Shown here: in pieces, positions 1,089 through 16,358 of the stretch
Position numbering within the stretch: the first letter of the stretch is position 1
How the letters are laid out: each line of letters opens with the position of its first letter
Virus genome (UHGV): UHGV-0071988
Length of the DNA stretch: 16,916 bases
From: a virus
Direction: 5' to 3' (one strand)
Notes under the pieces: generated by a model
The model's input: the letters and a program-made list of their open reading frames with translations, nothing else
Databases searched by the model: none
What the model was told of the DNA's origin: nothing
Translations under genes and position numbers: made by a program

Positions 1089-1330
1089 GCCGTTTATCCG
1101 CTAAAATCCCCTCGCTTGTGCAAGCAAGTGGGCCTCGGTTTGTATCCACGGCACCCTGTGGGTATGAATGACTGTCGTCAGGTCGCAACTGACGGCGGTC
1201 GCCCACCTTCCAGTAATAAAAAAGCCACCAGCATTAACTCCACAGCGATCTGGAGTTAATGAGGCAGCTTTGGTTTGCGCATTATCGCAGCCCCTGGTAA
1301 GCACAAGAGCTGCTGTAATGCTAAAAAACA

Positions 1331-1356
1331 AAACCACCCGCAGGTGGTTTTATAAA
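1331..1356 (-). terminator. Intrinsic terminator (hairpin AAACCACC-cgca-GGTGGTTT flanked by A/T runs; strongest on minus strand)
   Basis: Perfect 8-bp inverted repeat at 1331-1350; the minus-strand transcript has a U-run after the stem (reverse complement of ctaaaaaaca). Sits just downstream of the 1380-1787 gene. Confidence 0.6.
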
Positions 1357-2512: not shown

Positions 2513-2536
2513 CCCATGTTCTCCTTTGTCTGGATG

Positions 2537-2563
2537 TAAAAAAGCCTCGGCAATTGCCGAGGC
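2537..2563 (-). terminator. Intrinsic terminator (20-nt palindrome GCCTCGGCAATTGCCGAGGC plus U-run on minus strand)
   Basis: Palindrome at 2544-2563 followed, in the minus-strand direction, by a 7-nt U-run (plus-strand A-run 2537-2543). Located between the 73-aa gene and the 99-aa gene. Confidence 0.65.
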
Positions 2564-2586
2564 TCGTTGTTCGTTATCGTTACGGT

Positions 2587-2815: not shown

Positions 2816-2925
2816 TCTCCGGTTTAACCAGGGCGGGTATCGCTCGGTTTCGGGTATAACCTTAGGAAATTTTTTCCCACTTGTAAAGCGCTTTTTATAT
2901 AAATCTATAATTATATAATTCTATA
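2816..2925 (-). promoter_or_regulatory. Duplicated promoter/leader element, copy A (TTTACA-N17-TAAGGT plus upstream AT-rich palindromic site and shared 5' UTR)
   Basis: Near-identical (3-4 differences by eye) to 9538-9647. Minus-strand -35 TTTACA = 2882-2887, -10 TAAGGT = 2859-2864, 17-bp spacer. Leader ends in SD GGAGA before the 73-aa gene. Confidence 0.55.
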
Positions 2926-3532: not shown

Positions 3533-3803
3533 AACTCTGGCCAGCTCTACAGCAAACACAACGAAAAGGGCACTAACCAGACTGATTAATGCCCTTGCCT
3601 GTTGTGTGCCGGATATCGCCCGACAACGCTGTTTTGGTAACACGGCTACAGTTCCGTGCCGCTCCAGCTTTTACCCCTTTGCGGATAACAGGCCCTGCCT
3701 GTAACTTAGCCCCACGTTCGCCCGAAATGCGCACCAGGCACGCATAAAGATGAGCACGAAGGAAGTAACTCCACCGCGCTTATCTTTATGTGTGAGAGTG
3801 AAT

Positions 3804-3879
3804 TGGTGGCCCCTACCGGATTTGAACCGATGACCGTGCGATTATGAGTCGCCTGCTCTAACCACTGAGCTAAGGGGCC
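3804..3879 (-). tRNA. tRNA with anticodon CAU, tRNA-Ile2 (lysidine-type)-like; 76 nt including encoded CCA
   Basis: Minus-strand sequence GGCCCCTTAGCTCAGTGGTTAGAGCAGGCGACTCATAATCGCACGGTCATCGGTTCAAATCCGGTAGGGGCCACCA folds as a cloverleaf (7-bp acceptor stem, D-arm GCTC/GAGC, anticodon loop CTCATAA, T-loop TTCAAAT). Acceptor stem and D-arm match E. coli ileX as recalled from memory; Met isotype not excluded. Confidence 0.85.
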
Positions 3880-4018
3880 ATATTTGATCTGTTTGTCTGG
3901 TGTGGCGCCGCGCACGAAAACCCCAGCCAATAAATTCAGGATTTTTGGGCGCGGCGGCATATCAGACAAACATGGTTGATGCGTGCGCTCATGAGAAAAG
4001 CGCATAGAATGTTGTAAC

Positions 4019-4052
4019 TATACATTTATATAATTATAGAAATATATATTAC
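4019..4052. repeat. AT-rich palindromic site C (member of the dispersed TATAGA/TTATATAA family)
   Basis: TACATTTATATAATTATAGAAATATATATT; shares TACATTTATATAA with site D and TTATATAATTATAGA modules with sites A, B, E, G. Confidence 0.5.
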
Positions 4053-4258
4053 TTTTGGCAGTTGATTTCCCATGCCCTGTTATGAGCCAGAATATCTTTC
4101 TTTGTCTGGCGGTCCATAACATCGATGTCGTGATCAGTCAGGTAGATGGGCTTTACCCAATCACAGGCGGTATCAACCACCACCGGGACGCTTCCACGAC
4201 TCCCGCAGCTCGCGATCAACATCGTCATCAGCCATATGGTTAACACTCTGCTGTACAT
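4049..4258 (-). CDS. o-spanin (Rz1-like outer-membrane lipoprotein), overlapping the i-spanin gene
   Basis: 69-aa ORF in a different frame over the 3' end of the i-spanin gene. Lipoprotein signal MYSRVLTIWLMTMLIAS|C with lipobox IASC, short mature part with a C-terminal Cys. SD GAGG 6 nt upstream. Confidence 0.5.
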   Translation of the reverse strand: MYSRVLTIWLMTMLIASCGSRGSVPVVVDTACDWVKPIYLTDHDIDVMDRQTKKDILAHNRAWEINCQK

Positions 4259-4451
4259 TCCCCACCTCTTTTGTCACTTCTATACGCCGCTCCGCAGTGG
4301 CTTTTACGGCGGCTGCATTCTCATTAATGCGCTGCTTTTCAGCTTCATCTTCGGCCTTTTCTCGCCCTTTCATACGACCAAAACCAAACGCGCCGAATGC
4401 AACCAATATAATTGTGCCAATAAATGACAACACGGCCTTCAAACCAGTCAT
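4173..4451 (-). CDS. i-spanin (Rz-like), N-terminal TM helix plus charged periplasmic domain
   Basis: 92 aa; TM segment AVLSFIGTIILVAFGAFGFG then a K/E/R-rich helical region. ATG overlaps the endolysin stop (ATGA at 4451-4448). Confidence 0.55.
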   Translation of the reverse strand: MTGLKAVLSFIGTIILVAFGAFGFGRMKGREKAEDEAEKQRINENAAAVKATAERRIEVTKEVGNVQQSVNHMADDDVDRELRESWKRPGGG

Positions 4452-4990
4452 ACCACCACTCGCTCTTTCATCCAGCCGTAGACAAACGACTCATTAGCCT
4501 CGCGCTTCTCCGCCAACTCCAGATAGCGTTCGCCCTGCGTACAGTTCAGCGACGTCAGCATCACCCGTTCGCCGTCTTTTCCCCGATTCCCAAGATAAGC
4601 ACGCAGCGCATTAATGGTACGTGGACCGATTCGTCCGTCTGCATCCAAATCGGGATACAGCTTCCCGCGCAGGTTGAACACATTCAGCCAGCGTTGAAGC
4701 ATTTTTGACGCCACTGTTGGCCCCATGTTCACCCCCGTGTCACACAGCTCTGCGGCAATATCAGAGGATAATGCGGCCACCTGATCAAAGCGTGGTCCGT
4801 ACCAGTAATCAGCCTCAAGGATTTCCAGTGCCTGTTCGCGAGTTAAATCGCGCATATCGCCACGGTATCCATGAGCACGGGCAGTGTTCTGAGTAATGCC
4901 CCACTTTGTTGGGCCTCCCTTGTCGTCAGGGTGATCCACATAGCCGCCCTCTTTTCCAAGAACGCTGTTAAAAATCTCATCTTTGGTCAT
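4448..4990 (-). CDS. Endolysin, glycoside hydrolase family 108-like N-terminal domain with C-terminal peptidoglycan-binding domain
   Basis: N-terminus MTKDEIFNSVLGKEGGYVDHPDDKGGPTKWGIT is the characteristic GH108 signature (EGGYV..DP.D.GG.T.WGIT). Lies between holin-like and spanin genes. Confidence 0.85.
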   Translation of the reverse strand: MTKDEIFNSVLGKEGGYVDHPDDKGGPTKWGITQNTARAHGYRGDMRDLTREQALEILEADYWYGPRFDQVAALSSDIAAELCDTGVNMGPTVASKMLQRWLNVFNLRGKLYPDLDADGRIGPRTINALRAYLGNRGKDGERVMLTSLNCTQGERYLELAEKREANESFVYGWMKERVVV

Positions 4991-5273
4991 GATTAAACCC
5001 TAATGCGTCAACTATCCGCGCCAGATTGCCCCTGAAATACAGAACAACGATGCAGATAATCAGATTTCCAATAACCACCAGCCAGTGGGATTCTTGATAA
5101 AGACCGAACACATAACGGAAGGGAACATTGGCGTATACAATGACGTAGATATAAGCCAGAAAGGAAACAAATGGACGATGCCTGGAGTCTTTCCGTCGAT
5201 AAAGCATCAGCGCCATTACTATTACTGTGCAAAGCACCGCATTAATCAGTGCTGACGGGTCACTGCTTACCAT
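4977..5273 (-). CDS. Holin/antiholin-like membrane protein (98 aa, about 3 TM segments)
   Basis: Start taken at MVSSDPS (strong SD GGAGGGGG 5 nt upstream). Three hydrophobic segments. Sits between the first membrane protein and the endolysin. Confidence 0.55.
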   Translation of the reverse strand: MVSSDPSALINAVLCTVIVMALMLYRRKDSRHRPFVSFLAYIYVIVYANVPFRYVFGLYQESHWLVVIGNLIICIVVLYFRGNLARIVDALGFNHDQR

Positions 5274-5655
5274 TTGAACCCCCTCCACGTAAGCGGGAAA
5301 GCATTCCAAAGATGCTACCGAGATCCTGGCTGTTTACGAACGTGAGGATTTTAATGGTCAATGCAGCCACAATAACCGCACCAAGCGCATCCAGAGGACG
5401 ATCGTTGTAGCTGGTCCATTTGGCAAGAAATGAGCCAACTAACGGCGCTCCAATCACTCCAACAATGAACGATGTAAAGAAATAGCCAATCAGCTTGAGA
5501 CGGCTAATATTCACCGCTGTAGCAACATAGAAAACAGCGCCAGCAAATGCCCCGAATACAACGCCGTAATCAATACCAGTTGCAATACCAAAAACGCTGG
5601 CACCCATCAGGCCACCAGCAGCAACGGCCGTACCGGAAATTGGTTCTGCTGACAT
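5260..5655 (-). CDS. Putative holin (131 aa, multi-TM, Gly/Ala-rich)
   Basis: Start at MSAEPISG with SD GAGGA 7 nt upstream. 3-4 hydrophobic helices. First gene of the lysis cassette, immediately after terminator 5669-5698. Confidence 0.6.
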   Translation of the reverse strand: MSAEPISGTAVAAGGLMGASVFGIATGIDYGVVFGAFAGAVFYVATAVNISRLKLIGYFFTSFIVGVIGAPLVGSFLAKWTSYNDRPLDALGAVIVAALTIKILTFVNSQDLGSIFGMLSRLRGGGSNGKQ

Positions 5656-5668
5656 TGAAATCCTCGTT

Positions 5669-5698
5669 AAAAAAAAAGCCCCGCCGAAAAGGCAGGGC
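5669..5698 (-). terminator. Intrinsic terminator directly upstream of the lysis cassette (tR'-like)
   Basis: Minus-strand RNA: stem GCCCUGCC / GGCGGGGC (one G-U pair), loop UUUUC, then a 9-nt U-run (plus-strand A-run 5669-5677). Ends about 14 nt before the holin start codon. Confidence 0.7.
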
Positions 5699-5843
5699 TT
5701 CATAAAGCAACAAATTACGCGGTAATCGCTTAACGCAGTTTTACTACGTTAAATGAAACACTACACCCAGTTACCACCTAAAACAAGGTTTTCCCATAAA
5801 AAACCTTCATATTGTGGTTAATCGATCAATAAAAAAACAATAC

Positions 5844-6023
5844 TTAACTTTTGACCAACCGAACATCCCGACCAGGACTTCCATAATATTCGCCGATATG
5901 CCACTGCTTAAGTTGAGTAATCTTCTCCAACTTAACGCCCATAGAGTCCAGTTTCTGCCATGTTTTCGGTTGTATGTGCTTCATTACCCGCTCTGAATAT
6001 CTGAATACTGCTCGTAAGCGCAT
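5844..6023 (-). CDS. Possible small basic protein (59 aa)
   Basis: ORF below track cutoff: MRLRAVFRYSERVMKHIQPKTWQKLDSMGVKLEKITQLKQWHIGEYYGSPGRDVRLVKS. Weak SD. Could be non-coding late-leader sequence instead. Confidence 0.2.
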   Translation of the reverse strand: MRLRAVFRYSERVMKHIQPKTWQKLDSMGVKLEKITQLKQWHIGEYYGSPGRDVRLVKS

Positions 6024-6032
6024 GGCTTCTCA

Positions 6033-6218
6033 CTACAGCTTATATAAGTGGTTTTTCCAGCGGTTTTGCGCCGCGCTGCGCTTATCTTTGACTCCCTCTC
6101 TGGCAATTCCAGAAAATGAGAACAACACCACACGGCGATTGCTAACTCTCAACCACTGGCTGGGATAGCAAAGTCTGTATACACGGGAGATAAGCATCTT
6201 AGCTTTACGGTTTTTCAT
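6033..6218 (-). CDS. Possible small basic protein (61 aa)
   Basis: Internal ATG of track ORF 6033-6311 with SD GGAGAG 6-8 nt upstream: MKNRKAKMLISRVYRL... Overlaps the stop of the 6205-6816 gene by 14 nt. Confidence 0.25.
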   Translation of the reverse strand: MKNRKAKMLISRVYRLCYPSQWLRVSNRRVVLFSFSGIAREGVKDKRSAAQNRWKNHLYKL

Positions 6219-6816
6219 CGCTTTGCTCTCCTGCATCTCCTTTGGTGCGAATTCCAGCGGCGCGTGGCACATTAACTTCCACGATGCGCACAGTTGGTTT
6301 GTACATCTCAATCGCAGTCAGCCAGTCAGCGCCAGTCATGCGCTTTTCTGCATCGCCATTAGTCCACTTAACCGGTACACCAATAGCCTTCATCGCGATT
6401 TCTATTTCCCCGGCAATGGCGCTTTTTCCGCAACCAGTAAAACCAGATACAACGACCAGAACTTCACCTTTGGCTGGTTTTATTTCCCGCGCTTCCAGTT
6501 CTGCTATGCGCTTACTTCCATCCGAGATAACACCTTCGTAATACTCACGCTGCTCGTTGAGTTTTGATTTTGCTTCCTCAAGCTCAACTCTCAGCTTCCC
6601 TACCGTTAGCGCAATATCCTCGTTCTCCTGGTCGCGGGATTTGATGTATTGCTGGTTCCTTTCCCGTTCATCCAGAAGCGCCAGCACAATGTGTGGCGTT
6701 ATCAAGGACTCAAATTCGGCAACAGCTTGCTCGCCTCGCTTATAATTCTTAATCCCACCTAAATCTTTCGCGTTCTGTGCCGCCTCACGCAGTGCCTGGT
6801 AATTAATTTCGCTCAT
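6205..6816 (-). CDS. Coiled-coil protein (203 aa) with a C-terminal GxxGxGKS motif
   Basis: Start at MSEINYQALREAAQ (SD AGGGGG 6 nt upstream). Charged heptad-like central region; motif SGFTGCGKS resembles a Walker A P-loop but is followed by only about 65 residues. Confidence 0.6.
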   Translation of the reverse strand: MSEINYQALREAAQNAKDLGGIKNYKRGEQAVAEFESLITPHIVLALLDERERNQQYIKSRDQENEDIALTVGKLRVELEEAKSKLNEQREYYEGVISDGSKRIAELEAREIKPAKGEVLVVVSGFTGCGKSAIAGEIEIAMKAIGVPVKWTNGDAEKRMTGADWLTAIEMYKPTVRIVEVNVPRAAGIRTKGDAGEQSDEKP

Positions 6817-8398: not shown

Positions 8399-8435
8399 CT
8401 TATACATTTATATAAATATATAATTCTATATACGG
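8399..8435. repeat. AT-rich palindromic site D (promoter-proximal, upstream of the PapI-like gene)
   Basis: CTTATACATTTATATAAATATATAATTCTATATAC; shares TACATTTATATAA with site C and TATATAATTCTATA with site A. Confidence 0.5.
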
Positions 8436-9537: not shown

Positions 9538-9647
9538 TCTCCGGTTTAACCAGGGCGGGTATCGCTCGGTTTCGGGTATAACCTTAGGAAAATTTTTCCC
9601 ACCTGTAAAGCACTTTTTATATAAATCTATAATTATATATTTATAGA
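9538..9647 (-). promoter_or_regulatory. Duplicated promoter/leader element, copy B (TTTACA-N17-TAAGGT), immediately downstream of the Q-like gene
   Basis: Near-identical to 2816-2925. Minus-strand -35 = 9604-9609, -10 = 9581-9586. Contains the near-perfect inverted repeat AAATCTATAA-ttatatat-TTATAGATTT (9623-9650). Confidence 0.55.
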
Positions 9648-9700
9648 TTTCCGATATTCCCGGTGCCTACAAATCACCAAAACAGCTCAAAATGACACTT

Positions 9701-10078
9701 TCACTCTCTTCTCTTTTTCAAGTAGTCGACAACATACGCCCTGGCTTTTGCCAGCTTCCGGCGATACTGTCTGAGACTAAGAGAAAGGGCGTGGGCTTTA
9801 TCAATATGCGGTGCATTTATGTCGAGGCCCCGAATCTCCCACGCCCCGTATTCAATTCGGACAACCAGCGCCGCAGTCTCATCAACTACCGTGAGGGCCG
9901 TCACCGCTCCCTCGATACTGGTTTCCAGTGAGTCATTTGGTGCGCCGCCCCCTCCGGTAAACTGGCAGCGCGTAACCATCATCATTTCTAACATCGACGC
10001 GAAACCGCTACGGGCGTTGCAGCCATTGCGCACCCACAGCGCCCATAGCTCAAACAAGCTATCCAGATCGCGTCTCAC
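9701..10078 (-). CDS. Antitermination protein Q-like (QuuD-type, 125 aa), GTG start
   Basis: N-terminus MRRDLDSLFELWALWVRNG resembles the MRDIQMVLERWGAWAANN start of the DLP12 QuuD protein, recalled from memory. Position after nin-type genes fits lambdoid order. GTG start with SD GGGAGA 8 nt upstream. Confidence 0.55.
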   Translation of the reverse strand: MRRDLDSLFELWALWVRNGCNARSGFASMLEMMMVTRCQFTGGGGAPNDSLETSIEGAVTALTVVDETAALVVRIEYGAWEIRGLDINAPHIDKAHALSLSLRQYRRKLAKARAYVVDYLKKRRE

Positions 10079-11560: not shown

Positions 11561-12051
11561 TCCTCAAGCCTCCCAAGTGCTGAACGCCGGGCGTTGCTAA
11601 TCTCCTTATGAATCAGCTCGATATCGCTGGAATCTTTATTCTTAAGCTCCAGCACGGTAATCGCATCACGAACCTCTGAAACGGTTACGTGTGAGTGTTT
11701 CCAGCGAGCAATGAATCGCGGACCGCGTAGATTGCAACGCTCCGCAGGCATCCCCAGCTCAGAGAAAACCGCTTTCAGCCTTGATAAGCAGTTAACAGGG
11801 AGATTCCCTTTGATCTTGTTCTGCCGAACCGATGTGCCATCGCTACGCTGGCGCTGACGTTCGGCAAAATCTGCCGCCCATTGCTGGACGTTAATCCGGC
11901 CTTCCGAATACGCCACCAGCAGCGTCAGGTTATCCGCACGAGGGAATCTCTCGAAGCGATACCAGGCACCAATCAGTGATGACGTAAAGCCAAACTTTCT
12001 GGCAACACCAATTTGGCCTCCATTTTCGTCAACCCACTCCTGAAAGGTCAT
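11557..12051 (-). CDS. Cro/CII-like HTH DNA-binding regulator (164 aa), divergent from the CI-like repressor
   Basis: N-terminal GGQIGVARKFGFTSSLIGAWYRF resembles a Cro-type helix-turn-helix. First gene of the leftward operon from the operator region. SD CTGGAG 8 nt upstream. Confidence 0.6.
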   Translation of the reverse strand: MTFQEWVDENGGQIGVARKFGFTSSLIGAWYRFERFPRADNLTLLVAYSEGRINVQQWAADFAERQRQRSDGTSVRQNKIKGNLPVNCLSRLKAVFSELGMPAERCNLRGPRFIARWKHSHVTVSEVRDAITVLELKNKDSSDIELIHKEISNARRSALGRLEE

Positions 12052-12070: not shown

Positions 12071-12114
12071 ACCACGATATGTGGTATTAAAACCACACAT
12101 CGTGAGTTTTTCAA
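12071..12114 (-). promoter_or_regulatory. PR-like promoter (-35 TTGAAA, 17-bp spacer, -10 TTTAAT) with operators O1 and O2
   Basis: Minus-strand -35 at 12109-12114 and -10 at 12086-12091. O2 (ACCACacatcGTGAG, 12092-12106) fills the spacer; O1 (ACCACgatatGTGGT, 12071-12085) covers the start region. Centres 21 bp apart. Confidence 0.5.
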
Positions 12115-12173
12115 TGGGCGAAACAAAAAATAACCTTCTATTTGTGGTCCACCTCTCGTCTTACCATGTGAAA

Positions 12174-12225: not shown

Positions 12226-12882
12226 ATGAAAAGCAACGACGAGAACATCAAGAAAGAAATAGGTCTGCGCATTCAGACTCTACGGAAACAATCCGGCATG
12301 ACTGCCGGAGATCTCCAGCAAGTCACTGGAATAGGCTTAAGCACCTTGCAGAACTATGAGGCCGGATTAAGACAACCATCTATACCTGCCATCAAGAAAA
12401 TCGCGCACGCCCTGAAAGCATCAGCGCCTTATATCGCGTGCTTAACAGATAACCCGTTCCCATCCCAGAATACTAACGCTCCTGTTATTCCTGGGCTTGT
12501 AGCTATAAAAAATGACATAGCATCGCACGCCGGAGAAAAGCCAGTGCTGGCGATAGAACAGGAGATTCTACGAAGCAAGAACATCAACCCATCGTCTCTG
12601 TTAGTTCTCCAGAGCAACGATGAGTTAATGTCACCAACAATATACCCTGGCTCCCAAGTCCTGATTAATACAGACGATACAGAGATTCATGAGGGGATCT
12701 ATGCCCTTGAAGACAGAAATGGCCTGGTTGTTTTGAGGCACTGTAGAGTCATACCGGGTGACAATGCTGTTATGCTGTCAACCGAAAGGGATGCTGAAAT
12801 GAACACTAAGCATCTGAATAACGAGGAATTTAAGCGTTATAAAGTTCTTGGCCGCGTAGTTAGTGTTGTCAACTGGTTATGA
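12226..12882 (+). CDS. CI-like phage repressor (N-terminal HTH_XRE, C-terminal S24 LexA-like peptidase domain)
   Basis: 218 aa. N-terminal IGLRIQTLRKQSGMTAGDLQQVTGIGLSTLQNYEAG is an XRE-type HTH. C-terminal half has LMSPTIYPGSQVLIN (candidate Ser nucleophile) and a later conserved Lys region, typical of autocleaving repressors. Divergent from the Cro-like gene across the operators. Confidence 0.85.
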   Translation: MKSNDENIKKEIGLRIQTLRKQSGMTAGDLQQVTGIGLSTLQNYEAGLRQPSIPAIKKIAHALKASAPYIACLTDNPFPSQNTNAPVIPGLVAIKNDIASHAGEKPVLAIEQEILRSKNINPSSLLVLQSNDELMSPTIYPGSQVLINTDDTEIHEGIYALEDRNGLVVLRHCRVIPGDNAVMLSTERDAEMNTKHLNNEEFKRYKVLGRVVSVVNWL

Positions 12883-13363: not shown

Positions 13364-13383
13364 ACGCCCGCTTACATGATTAT
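13364..13383 (+). terminator. GC-rich hairpin AAGCGGGC-taac-GCCCGCTT (possible terminator of the cI operon)
   Basis: Perfect 8-bp stem 15 nt after the stop of the 124-aa gene; the downstream U-run is poor. Confidence 0.4.
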
Positions 13384-13385
13384 AG

Positions 13386-13475
13386 ATTTATATAATTATA
13401 TAAAACGCTTTTCATCCGTAAAAAAGTTGGTTATGCTTACCTCGTTCTATAAATATAGATTTATAGAATTATATA
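13386..13475. promoter_or_regulatory. parA upstream region with two AT-rich palindromic sites (E: 13386-13414; F: 13445-13468)
   Basis: Site E is gaTTATAGATTTATATAATTATATAAAA. Site F is a perfect 10-bp inverted repeat TTCTATAAAT-atag-ATTTATAGAA. Both lie within 110 bp upstream of the ParA start. Confidence 0.55.
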
Positions 13476-13499
13476 ATCAAACACATGGAGTCTCGACAA

Positions 13500-14153: not shown

Positions 14154-14186
14154 TATATAATTATAGTTTTATAGATTTATATAAGA
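14151..14186. repeat. AT-rich site G between parA and the RHH gene
   Basis: TAATATATAATTATAGTTTTATAGATTTATATAAGA; contains the core TATAGATTTATATAA (14170-14184) shared with sites A, B and E. Confidence 0.5.
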
Positions 14187-14667: not shown

Positions 14668-14689
14668 AAAAAAGGCCCCCGAAGGGGCC
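14668..14689 (-). terminator. Intrinsic terminator, minus-strand oriented (GGCCCC-cgaa-GGGGCC plus U-run)
   Basis: Hairpin at 14674-14689 with A6 on the plus strand at 14668-14673, giving a U-run after the stem for a minus-strand transcript. No U-run in the plus direction. Confidence 0.55.
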
Positions 14690-15204
14690 TAATCGCTACT
14701 TGCTGCTAATGTTTATCGTCACATTCAGAGCGTTATCAGTAATCTTCCAACCCTCTCCATGTGGCGTAAACAAAGCTCCAGTAACAACGATCAAAATACA
14801 TACGTATTTCCTCATTGTATTGGCCCTCGCAGGCCGTTTCACGGCATCTCCACCGACGAAAATGACGCGAGAGCAAGCACACCGCTTGTGCTTGCGTGTA
14901 CGGCAAGTGGATGATCCTTTCCTTAAAGTCGGTGCCCGGGTGCGAATCGGCGAAAAGGCCCCAAGCCATATTACACGTCCTCGCCTTCATAATGAAGGAA
15001 TAACAAATGCTTTTATTACATGTAATTACATCCGAAGAAGTTAAAAAACTTCATTCTGCATGAACTAAGGAACTAAATTTCTTTATATGAATAGTGGACT
15101 ATTCACCTCAGTTGAGTAAGAATAGATACGCCGCTTGTGCTTGCGTGGTTGTTTATACAACGACGTTATGCTGAAAGGACCGCGAATCCGATCAGCACGA
15201 AAGA

Positions 15205-15981: not shown

Positions 15982-16358
15982 AGTGTCAAACAAATTTGAT
16001 TGGTCAAATCATGCGCTTAATGAGCAGAAAATTCCGTTTTTCAAACCCACGCTATGTGGTTGTCTCTGTTAAAATCTCGCCGTATTGACATGAATGCGCC
16101 ATTGGTGGACACTTTCCGAGCCGTAGCAAAATCTACGGCCGGGATTGGAACCCCGTAGACACAATGGCGCATACCGCGTTAGCGGTTTTTTTATGCGTAA
16201 AGCACTGCTACACCCAAATTATGGTGGGGCGTGCGGGGGAGTCGTAAGACTCGCCGGTTCGTCATTGTGTCCGGTAGTTCCAACCCTGCACGTCTCACCA
16301 CCCAATGATTGGAACCTGACGGTGGTGAGTATCCTTAACCTTTAAGGGAATCATCACA

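Follow-up and report, generated by a model that had tools for sequence, protein, structure and literature searches.

How can a holin gene be expressed when a transcription terminator lies directly against its ribosome-binding site? The question arises in a 16,916-nt stretch of viral DNA, UHGV virus genome UHGV-0071988 (hereafter the window, meaning this whole stretch), in which an earlier reading made from the sequence alone had placed a terminator about 14 nt before the holin start codon, with only a Shine-Dalgarno (SD) sequence between them, and had proposed obligate antitermination. All of the genes relevant to this terminator and to lysis lie on the minus strand, and the parts around the lysis cassette are the following.

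5669..5701, minus strand: T1, predicted intrinsic terminator, GAAGCCCTGCC-TTTTC-GGCGGGGCTTT followed by a U-tract
5665..5661 and 5655..5653, minus strand: SD sequence GAGGA and, after a 5-nt spacer, the holin ATG, by direct sequence reading
5260..5655, minus strand: holin of 131 aa, Phage_holin_8 (Pfam E 1.7e-37; PHROG 198, holin)
5273..4977, minus strand: second holin
4990..4448, minus strand: GH108 endolysin, named from the RefSeq annotation
4451..4173 and 4258..4049, minus strand: spanin candidates, assigned by reading the translations

The stem of T1 (5701..5675) has 11 pairs, 7 of them G-C, with a loop of 5 nt and nine T's at 5677..5669, so that a G+C-rich stem-loop is directly followed by a U-tract, the sequence pattern of an intrinsic terminator. 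Its RNA fold (-20.2 kcal/mol, z = -3.7) was equalled by none of 200 shuffles. From the last T (5669) to the holin ATG there are 13 nt, AACGAGGATTTCA, and this start codon is also the RefSeq start for an identical 131-aa protein. The holin is the first gene of the lysis cassette, and the close approach of T1 to its start, with only the SD between, is thus confirmed at 13 nt. Further hairpins stand on the same strand downstream.

2538..2565, minus strand: T2, predicted intrinsic terminator, 25 nt 5' of the ATG (2512) of a 99-aa gene
1353..1328, minus strand: T3, 11 pairs and a U-rich tail, -15.4 kcal/mol
1271..1221 plus six U's (to 1218), minus strand: T3b, -27.5 kcal/mol, about 60 nt downstream of T3
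3558..3596, minus strand: strong hairpin with a weak U-tract, -24.2 kcal/mol, 55 nt before the methyltransferase start
3508, minus strand: start of the MT-A70 methyltransferase gene
1088, minus strand: ATG of the ParB-like nuclease gene

T2 has a stem of 10 pairs (2564..2543) and six U's, with its T-run ending at 2538 (-19.7 kcal/mol, z = -6.2), and the SD of the 99-aa gene, AAGGAG at 2526..2521, lies within the 25-nt gap, as the earlier reading had it. The fold z-scores of T1, T2 and T3 range from -3.7 to -6.2, and by their sequence all three, which lie on the coding strand, appear to be canonical intrinsic terminators. A sigma-70 promoter does not fit into gaps of 13 and 25 nt and none is predicted there, which bears out the claim that neither downstream gene has room for one of its own. 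The general statement that terminators sit directly against ribosome-binding sites holds for T1 and T2 and fails for T3, which is followed by T3b and then by the next clear gene only at 1088 (the ParB-like nuclease); because T3b follows T3, the genes on the packaging side stand behind tandem terminators. Just ahead of the ParB-like nuclease start, a hairpin at 1132..1108 was not significant (z -1.6). When strict terminator-like sites were defined as hairpins of -14 kcal/mol or stronger abutting a T-rich run, the window contained seven on the minus strand and none on the plus strand, against 0.22 +/- 0.41 (maximum 1) in 60 dinucleotide shuffles; two of the seven, those whose T-runs are at 12400 and 5594, fall within ORFs and are probably spurious. 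A lenient scan gave 34 sites where 16.5 +/- 4.4 were expected.

The setting of these terminators is a plasmid. About 1.2 kb around T1 is 96-99% identical to circular E. coli plasmids of 47-50 kb, and the same stretch also matches three 49-kb genomes named 'Yersinia phage vB_YpM'. Because these plasmid and phage records encode ParA partition, an XRE-type repressor, a Rha antirepressor and both terminase and portal, and because the window carries C4 and isrK RNAs, the window is part of a ~48-kb circular E. coli phage-plasmid with ParA and P1-type C4/isrK RNAs. It is not an integrated lambdoid prophage, although the sequence-only reading had spoken of lambdoid late control. Above the Rfam gathering scores, the window contains ryfA at 14668-14963 (minus strand) and, on the plus strand, isrK and C4 antisense RNA at 16120-16192 and 16217-16305; since these two lie 5' of ORFs matching the ORF6N and Rha antirepressor genes of relatives, their arrangement suggests a P1-type antisense immunity module. 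The genes upstream of the lysis cassette are arranged as follows.

12226-12882, plus strand: repressor gene, divergent from the early operon starting at 12051
First ATG 12051, minus strand: early operon, with a Ref-like nuclease, a DUF1064 protein and the 125-aa ORF 10078..9701
9701..10078, minus strand: 125-aa distant homologue of phage 21 Q (Q21/PA0613 superfamily), candidate processive antiterminator
Between the Q-like gene and the lysis cassette, minus strand: variable block, with DUF3560, an HTH protein, ASCH-like and Ea22-like genes and small ORFs

Transcription would run from the early operon through the variable block and a non-coding gap into the lysis cassette and then the tRNA-Met, 3' of which come the MT-A70 methyltransferase, several small genes and the ParB-like nuclease, with packaging genes next in relatives. 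The tRNA (3804-3879, minus strand) is called tRNA-Met with a CAT anticodon by ARAGORN and tRNA-Ile in one RefSeq relative, and a 34-nt inverted repeat immediately upstream has arms at 3890-3923 and 3939-3972 that are 82% complementary and 15 nt apart. At the head of the early operon, 16 nt before the ATG at 12051, a perfect 13-bp palindrome (12072-12105, minus strand; -24.9 kcal/mol) is followed by TTTT and contains TGTGGT/ACCACA half-sites; because these half-sites recur around the early promoter, the palindrome may be an operator, a terminator or both.

If polymerase is to pass these terminators, is there a factor that could let it do so? A Q-like gene had been placed about 4 kb upstream of the lysis genes with five cargo genes between them. 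The distance from the 125-aa gene to the holin start is indeed 4.05 kb; the count of five does not hold, as there are six to eight ORFs in between and the block differs between relatives. In relatives the Q-like gene is always the last of a conserved early operon. The protein itself matched no family in Pfam and no Q family even at E 10, falls in PHROG 5285 ('unknown'), and has close homologues that are all without names; neither phmmer with the single protein nor a profile of its close homologues (A1) found anything useful in the PDB. Its best named relative is the NCBIfam family PA0613_fam (NF051483), after PA0613 of the P. aeruginosa R/F-pyocin locus, which it matches end to end (E 2.5e-4, 21 bits, against a cut-off of 100). 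A profile search of 1.84 billion representatives recovered at least 130 clusters at 50% identity, mostly of 105-165 aa, and a broad profile of 109 members (A2) reached phage 21 Q in the PDB at E 2.5e-5, the only profile to do so, aligning its positions 5-91 with Q21 residues 12-95, including the LELWG/ARW motif. PF06530 was matched by 10 of the 109 members and PA0613_fam by 63, and hhalign to the Q-like protein of phage mEp390 gave E 1.9e-5. In Foldseek the top four hits were Q21, the best whole-length fold matches, at a non-significant E of ~0.3. The gene contexts of the distant family members L062 and L063 were uninformative. Q21 and Q933W define PF06530, and Q21 resembles ECF sigma region 4 (Yin et al., bioRxiv 10.1101/651190). 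The window protein thus scores below the Pfam gathering threshold of PF06530 while showing remote homology to Q21 and a shared fold, and on these grounds we conclude that it is a distant member of the Q21 superfamily and may act as an antiterminator. The label 'Q-like' is retained here in that sense, as one that profile and fold comparison support and that no Pfam Q family supports for the protein itself.

The placement of a terminator before the first lysis gene recurs in relatives. Positional equivalents of T1 are present in L003, L006, L016, L017, L022 and L023, and across relatives with unrelated hairpins and even other lysis cassettes the terminator stands 13-48 nt before the first lysis gene. 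In L003 (Salmonella plasmid pAR-0407-1), L016 and L017, the leader upstream of T1 is kept, the hairpin differs (AAGCCTCGC...GCGGGGCTTTTTTT), and a different lysis cassette begins 48 nt past the terminator. The corresponding gap of L006 contains three terminators, the last of them 24 nt ahead of a GH19-like gene, and L023, with a Q-like protein of 54% identity, has an unrelated hairpin (AAAAGCCCGCgcatGTGGGCTTTTT) 19 nt ahead of a homologous holin. Canonical terminators also stand 15-26 nt ahead of the next co-directional start codon in L019, L020, L021 and L026, and L003 has an unrelated hairpin at the place equivalent to T2, 24 nt before the next start. Because at least seven diverged relatives show this arrangement with hairpins of unrelated sequence, these comparisons argue for selection as opposed to chance.

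From the hairpins, their spacing, their conserved position and the homology to Q21, we infer termination, read-through, a loading site and a promoter, and arrive at an explanation that we hold to be somewhat favoured: T1, T2 and T3/T3b punctuate one long co-directional lytic array, and polymerase under the control of a Q21-like antiterminator reads through them. In the plasmid (lysogenic) state, the terminators would act as insulators, keeping transcription that comes from the variable cargo or from the short conserved leader out of the holin and packaging genes. During lytic growth, the early operon would supply the 125-aa protein (10078..9701), which would load on RNA polymerase at a promoter-proximal site and confer resistance to terminators, and the modified polymerase would pass T1 into the lysis cassette and go on through T2 and T3. 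If the downstream genes are promoter-free and served by read-through, each terminator can abut the next ribosome-binding site, and antitermination would then be obligate, as the sequence-only reading had supposed. Among the alternatives, the one that survives best, and that we nonetheless consider unlikely, is that the hairpins are leaky insulators and no antiterminator is involved: they would merely attenuate, strong lytic promoters would push polymerase through, and the 125-aa protein, resembling sigma region 4, would bind DNA as an activator or repressor of those promoters and would be no elongation factor. Its resemblance to sigma region 4 does not favour an activator, since the same is true of Q21 (bioRxiv 10.1101/651190). 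The profile homology, moreover, lies outside the helix-turn-helix and takes in the N-terminal two thirds of Q21, and the perfect 11-bp stem and nine U's of T1 are the anatomy of an efficient terminator, as tandem terminators before key genes are also at odds with mere attenuation.

How closely does read-through by a Q21-like factor at this locus resemble known late-gene switches? A Q cassette comprises the Q gene, PR', a pause element, a terminator and the late genes (bioRxiv 10.1101/651190). As in the cassettes of phages 21 and 933W, the protein in the window is small and helical and resembles Q21 by profile and fold, the holin is separated from a conserved promoter-proximal region by a strong intrinsic terminator, and the late array contains more terminators. 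Unlike in those cassettes, the protein falls below Pfam detection when searched alone, 4 kb of variable cargo separates its gene from the lysis genes, no terminator follows the promoter-like module beside the Q-like gene, and the host is a plasmid-prophage. An adjacent series of Q, PR', pause element and terminator is therefore absent, whereas a terminator between the promoter-proximal region and the lysis genes is present: the next strong minus-strand terminator after the Q-like gene is T1 itself, 3.9 kb downstream, and no canonical PR'-terminator unit directly follows the Q-like gene in L023, L025 or L026. Lambdoid Q-type late control, as first proposed for this DNA, thus finds support in the placement and recurrence of the terminators and in the homology to Q21, and departs from the model in being set in a phage-plasmid and in its missing Q-PR'-terminator adjacency. 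In lambda, several hundred nucleotides lie between tR' and S, whereas T1 touches the SD. Phage mEp390 comes close to the window: it has a homologous Phage_holin_8 holin with terminators a short way ahead of the gene, a 127-aa annotated Q-like protein, and an insert that separates Q from the holin; unlike the window, it is an integrated-type lambdoid phage, its Q lies 1.1 kb away across a reverse-oriented insert, and its two tandem terminators stand ~45-85 nt before the holin start, compared with 13 nt here. In P. aeruginosa, AlpA loads at a promoter and bypasses terminators immediately 5' of the lysis gene alpB and of PA0807 (PMC7969949), although it belongs, unlike the present system, to a chromosomal programmed-lysis system (PMC7969949, PMC9371919). 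A review groups PA0612-PA0613 as regulatory genes beside the lytic gene PA0614 (PMC11871291); our literature searches returned no published function for PA0613 and no functional study of this plasmid family.

Where would such a factor load? The non-coding sequence immediately upstream of T1 is one candidate, and its parts are listed here.

5702..5843, minus strand: conserved non-coding leader upstream of T1, with hairpin 1, an invariant block and stem-loop 2
5807..5785, minus strand: hairpin 1
5751..5731, minus strand: stem-loop 2, TAACGTAG-TAAAA-CTGCGTTA
5758..5786, minus strand: P2, candidate weak promoter, -35 TTGTTT (5786..5781), 17-nt spacer, -10 TAGTGT (5763..5758)

Together with T1 the module comprises ~190 nt of non-coding DNA (5843..5656). 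It travels with the lysis cassette, also precedes the different lysis cassette of the Salmonella plasmids (L003, L016) and L017, and in L004 (plasmid pMB9880_3) follows another upstream gene, with a recombination breakpoint exactly at its 5' edge. A comparison of 30 distinct module versions shows T1 to differ in no more than loop length, T-run length and one change of G-C to G-U, and the parts of the leader that vary freely are the 5 nt between AACCAC and GAAGG and the loop of hairpin 1. An exact-pattern scan of genome contigs for the leader core gave no match, and scans of viral and metagenome sequences returned only three lineages that were already known. Bordering the module upstream is a 59-aa ORF (5844-6023, minus strand) with no annotation in the RefSeq records inspected; by tblastn it is 61-69% identical and stop-free in Salmonella-type lineages, a large-database search found it in this plasmid family only, and in some relatives another gene replaces it.

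The sequence-only reading had proposed a search of 5700-5900 for an additional local late promoter. A promoter scan of the coding strand over 5656-6033 called no candidate; P2 (5786..5758) is a weak one that matches the consensus at 6 of 12 positions. Its pattern of conservation is suggestive: the invariant block opens at the -35 of P2, and the -35/-10 spacing is kept in three lineages. Transcription from P2 may start at ~5751 and yield a leader RNA of ~82 nt ending at T1, a layout like pR'-tR' of lambda, and if the module does hold its own weak promoter, T1 would be an ordinary tR' equivalent. Upstream of T1 there is also a -10-like TAACGT at 5751..5746, and a second promoter candidate (TGGTCA, 18 nt, TTTATT) would start near 5821, with a -35 that is not conserved. 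We identified neither a Q-binding element nor a sigma-dependent pause element with any confidence. Patterns considered for the former were set aside as chosen post hoc and inconsistent across lineages: GGTGGTAA and GGGTGTAG, which are separated by 10 bp within the spacer of P2, and AGGTGGKAA, which recurs in D2a, one of two modules that offer another possible place of loading.

9538..9645, minus strand: D2a, promoter-like module, TTTACA, 17 nt, TAAGGT, ~45-nt 5' UTR
2816..2923, minus strand: D2b, second copy, upstream of a 73-aa gene (ATG 2808)
2896-2926, 4019-4049, 8401-8431, 9610-9648, 13373-13411, 13446-13484 and 14154-14184: iterons of the window
16300-16316 and 10520-10545 of L023: examples of its iterons

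D2a stands between the Q-like gene, which it directly follows, and the DUF3560 gene, and T2 lies ~290 nt downstream of D2b. The two copies form a 108-nt direct repeat, 95% identical, with the consensus TTTACA, 17-18 nt, TA[AT]GGT; the spacer contains an inverted repeat, GGAAAAATTTTCC, and the 45-nt 5' UTR is conserved. Relatives have two or three D2 copies per genome, each before a different gene and each preceded by AT-rich 8-bp iterons. Such AT-rich iterons of 8-bp period (TATAGATT / TATATAAT / TATATAAA) flank parA and precede several promoter-like regions of the lytic strand, and L022 and L023 have their own version (TTAAATAA / ATATTTAA) at equivalent places, including directly before the holin terminator. 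The iterons could be dispersed partition or operator sites, or sites for another regulator, and lineage-specific iterons might tie partition proteins to the silencing of lytic genes. Dispersed partition sites are known from N15, in its sopC sites.

For read-through by the Q21-like protein, then, the candidate loading site would be the module just 5' of T1 (P2, 5786..5758), with T1 as the equivalent of lambda tR', and the D2 modules (9645..9538 and 2923..2816) would be the alternative; whichever is used, polymerase would have to cross T1. Loading at the local site cannot hold in every lineage, because L023 lacks space for a promoter before its holin terminator: its upstream gene ends ~30 nt before that terminator, which leaves no room for a local promoter, and read-through in L023 must therefore come from upstream.

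The conservation of the leader admits another use of T1, compatible with read-through by the Q21-like protein, namely that T1 is chiefly the 3' end of a trans-acting sRNA of ~80-155 nt, like the short pR'-tR' transcripts that lambda and Stx phages make, and that its place before the holin is secondary. In the E. coli lineage the ~120 nt from ~5788 to T1 are invariant and the sequence just upstream is variable, which speaks for an sRNA, although protein-binding DNA could explain this conservation equally well. Rfam at its gathering thresholds found no match in the leader; below them, the best match of positions 5670-5825 (minus strand) is GcvB (RF00022; 33 bits, E 1e-5), in an alignment that spans the 5' hairpin, a G/U-rich single-stranded stretch, two hairpins and the terminator, and GcvB is also the best match of the L003 leader (6193-6356; 22.9 bits), yet neither leader attains the 42 bits of the GcvB gathering score. 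P2, which would have to serve as the sRNA promoter, is a weak candidate, and relatives such as L023 have a holin terminator without the leader module. We consider an sRNA as the chief role of T1 doubtful, if not by much more so than leakiness of the hairpins. A composite of the two ideas, which we offer as speculation and rate a little lower again, is that the leader RNA, made in the plasmid state and ended at T1, is an Hfq-type sRNA with a GcvB-like G/U-rich seed through which it tunes the expression of host genes, and that T1 also serves as a lysis gate opened by the Q21-like branch that includes PA0613.

Instead, a cis-acting RNA or an N-like factor might establish antitermination at the early promoter, working through a motif shared by the early and lysis leaders, in which case the 125-aa protein would not be the factor. 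The 15-nt motif ACCACRAWWWGAAGG occurs only in these two places, at 12148..12134 and 5818..5804 on the minus strand, where chance predicts 0.04 matches for a pattern that was derived after both copies were known. An analogous pair of motif sites is present in L006. But the inner 5 nt of the motif are hypervariable in close relatives, which fits the spacer of a protein site better than an RNA signal, many ACCAC/GTGGT half-sites surround the early promoter and resemble operators for a repressor, and no N-like protein appeared among the proteins scanned; we regard this early loading as improbable. A leader-peptide or alternative-structure attenuator controlling T1 is disfavoured most strongly, for although a 10-codon leader ORF (ATG 5810 to TAG 5778) always has ATG, TTG or GTG as its first codon in the variants, it has no SD, its peptide is not conserved because variation in T-run length shifts the frame between close relatives, and no helix that would compete with the terminator forms in the minimum-energy or centroid fold.

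The principle of a Q-type switch is itself textbook, and what is new here is modest: a widespread and unannotated Q21-like branch linked to PA0613, a gene of this branch that is set apart from its likely target by variable cargo, and terminators abutting ribosome-binding sites that recur across the family. If the 125-aa protein does bring about read-through of T1, a family that is widespread (at least 130 clusters at 50% identity) and bears the annotation 'hypothetical' would gain a testable function; given its link to PA0613 of the R/F-pyocin locus, the release of pyocins may be under the same switch. A terminator that abuts the next ribosome-binding site is a simple signature, and could flag operons under processive antitermination in unannotated phage genomes. 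The element is found in dozens of E. coli plasmid records, one of them NZ_CP009073.1, a 48.5-kb plasmid of the reference strain ATCC 25922 with a leader region 98% identical to that of the window, and the arrangement would explain how lethal lysis genes stay silent in a common phage-plasmid when the cargo next to them is expressed.
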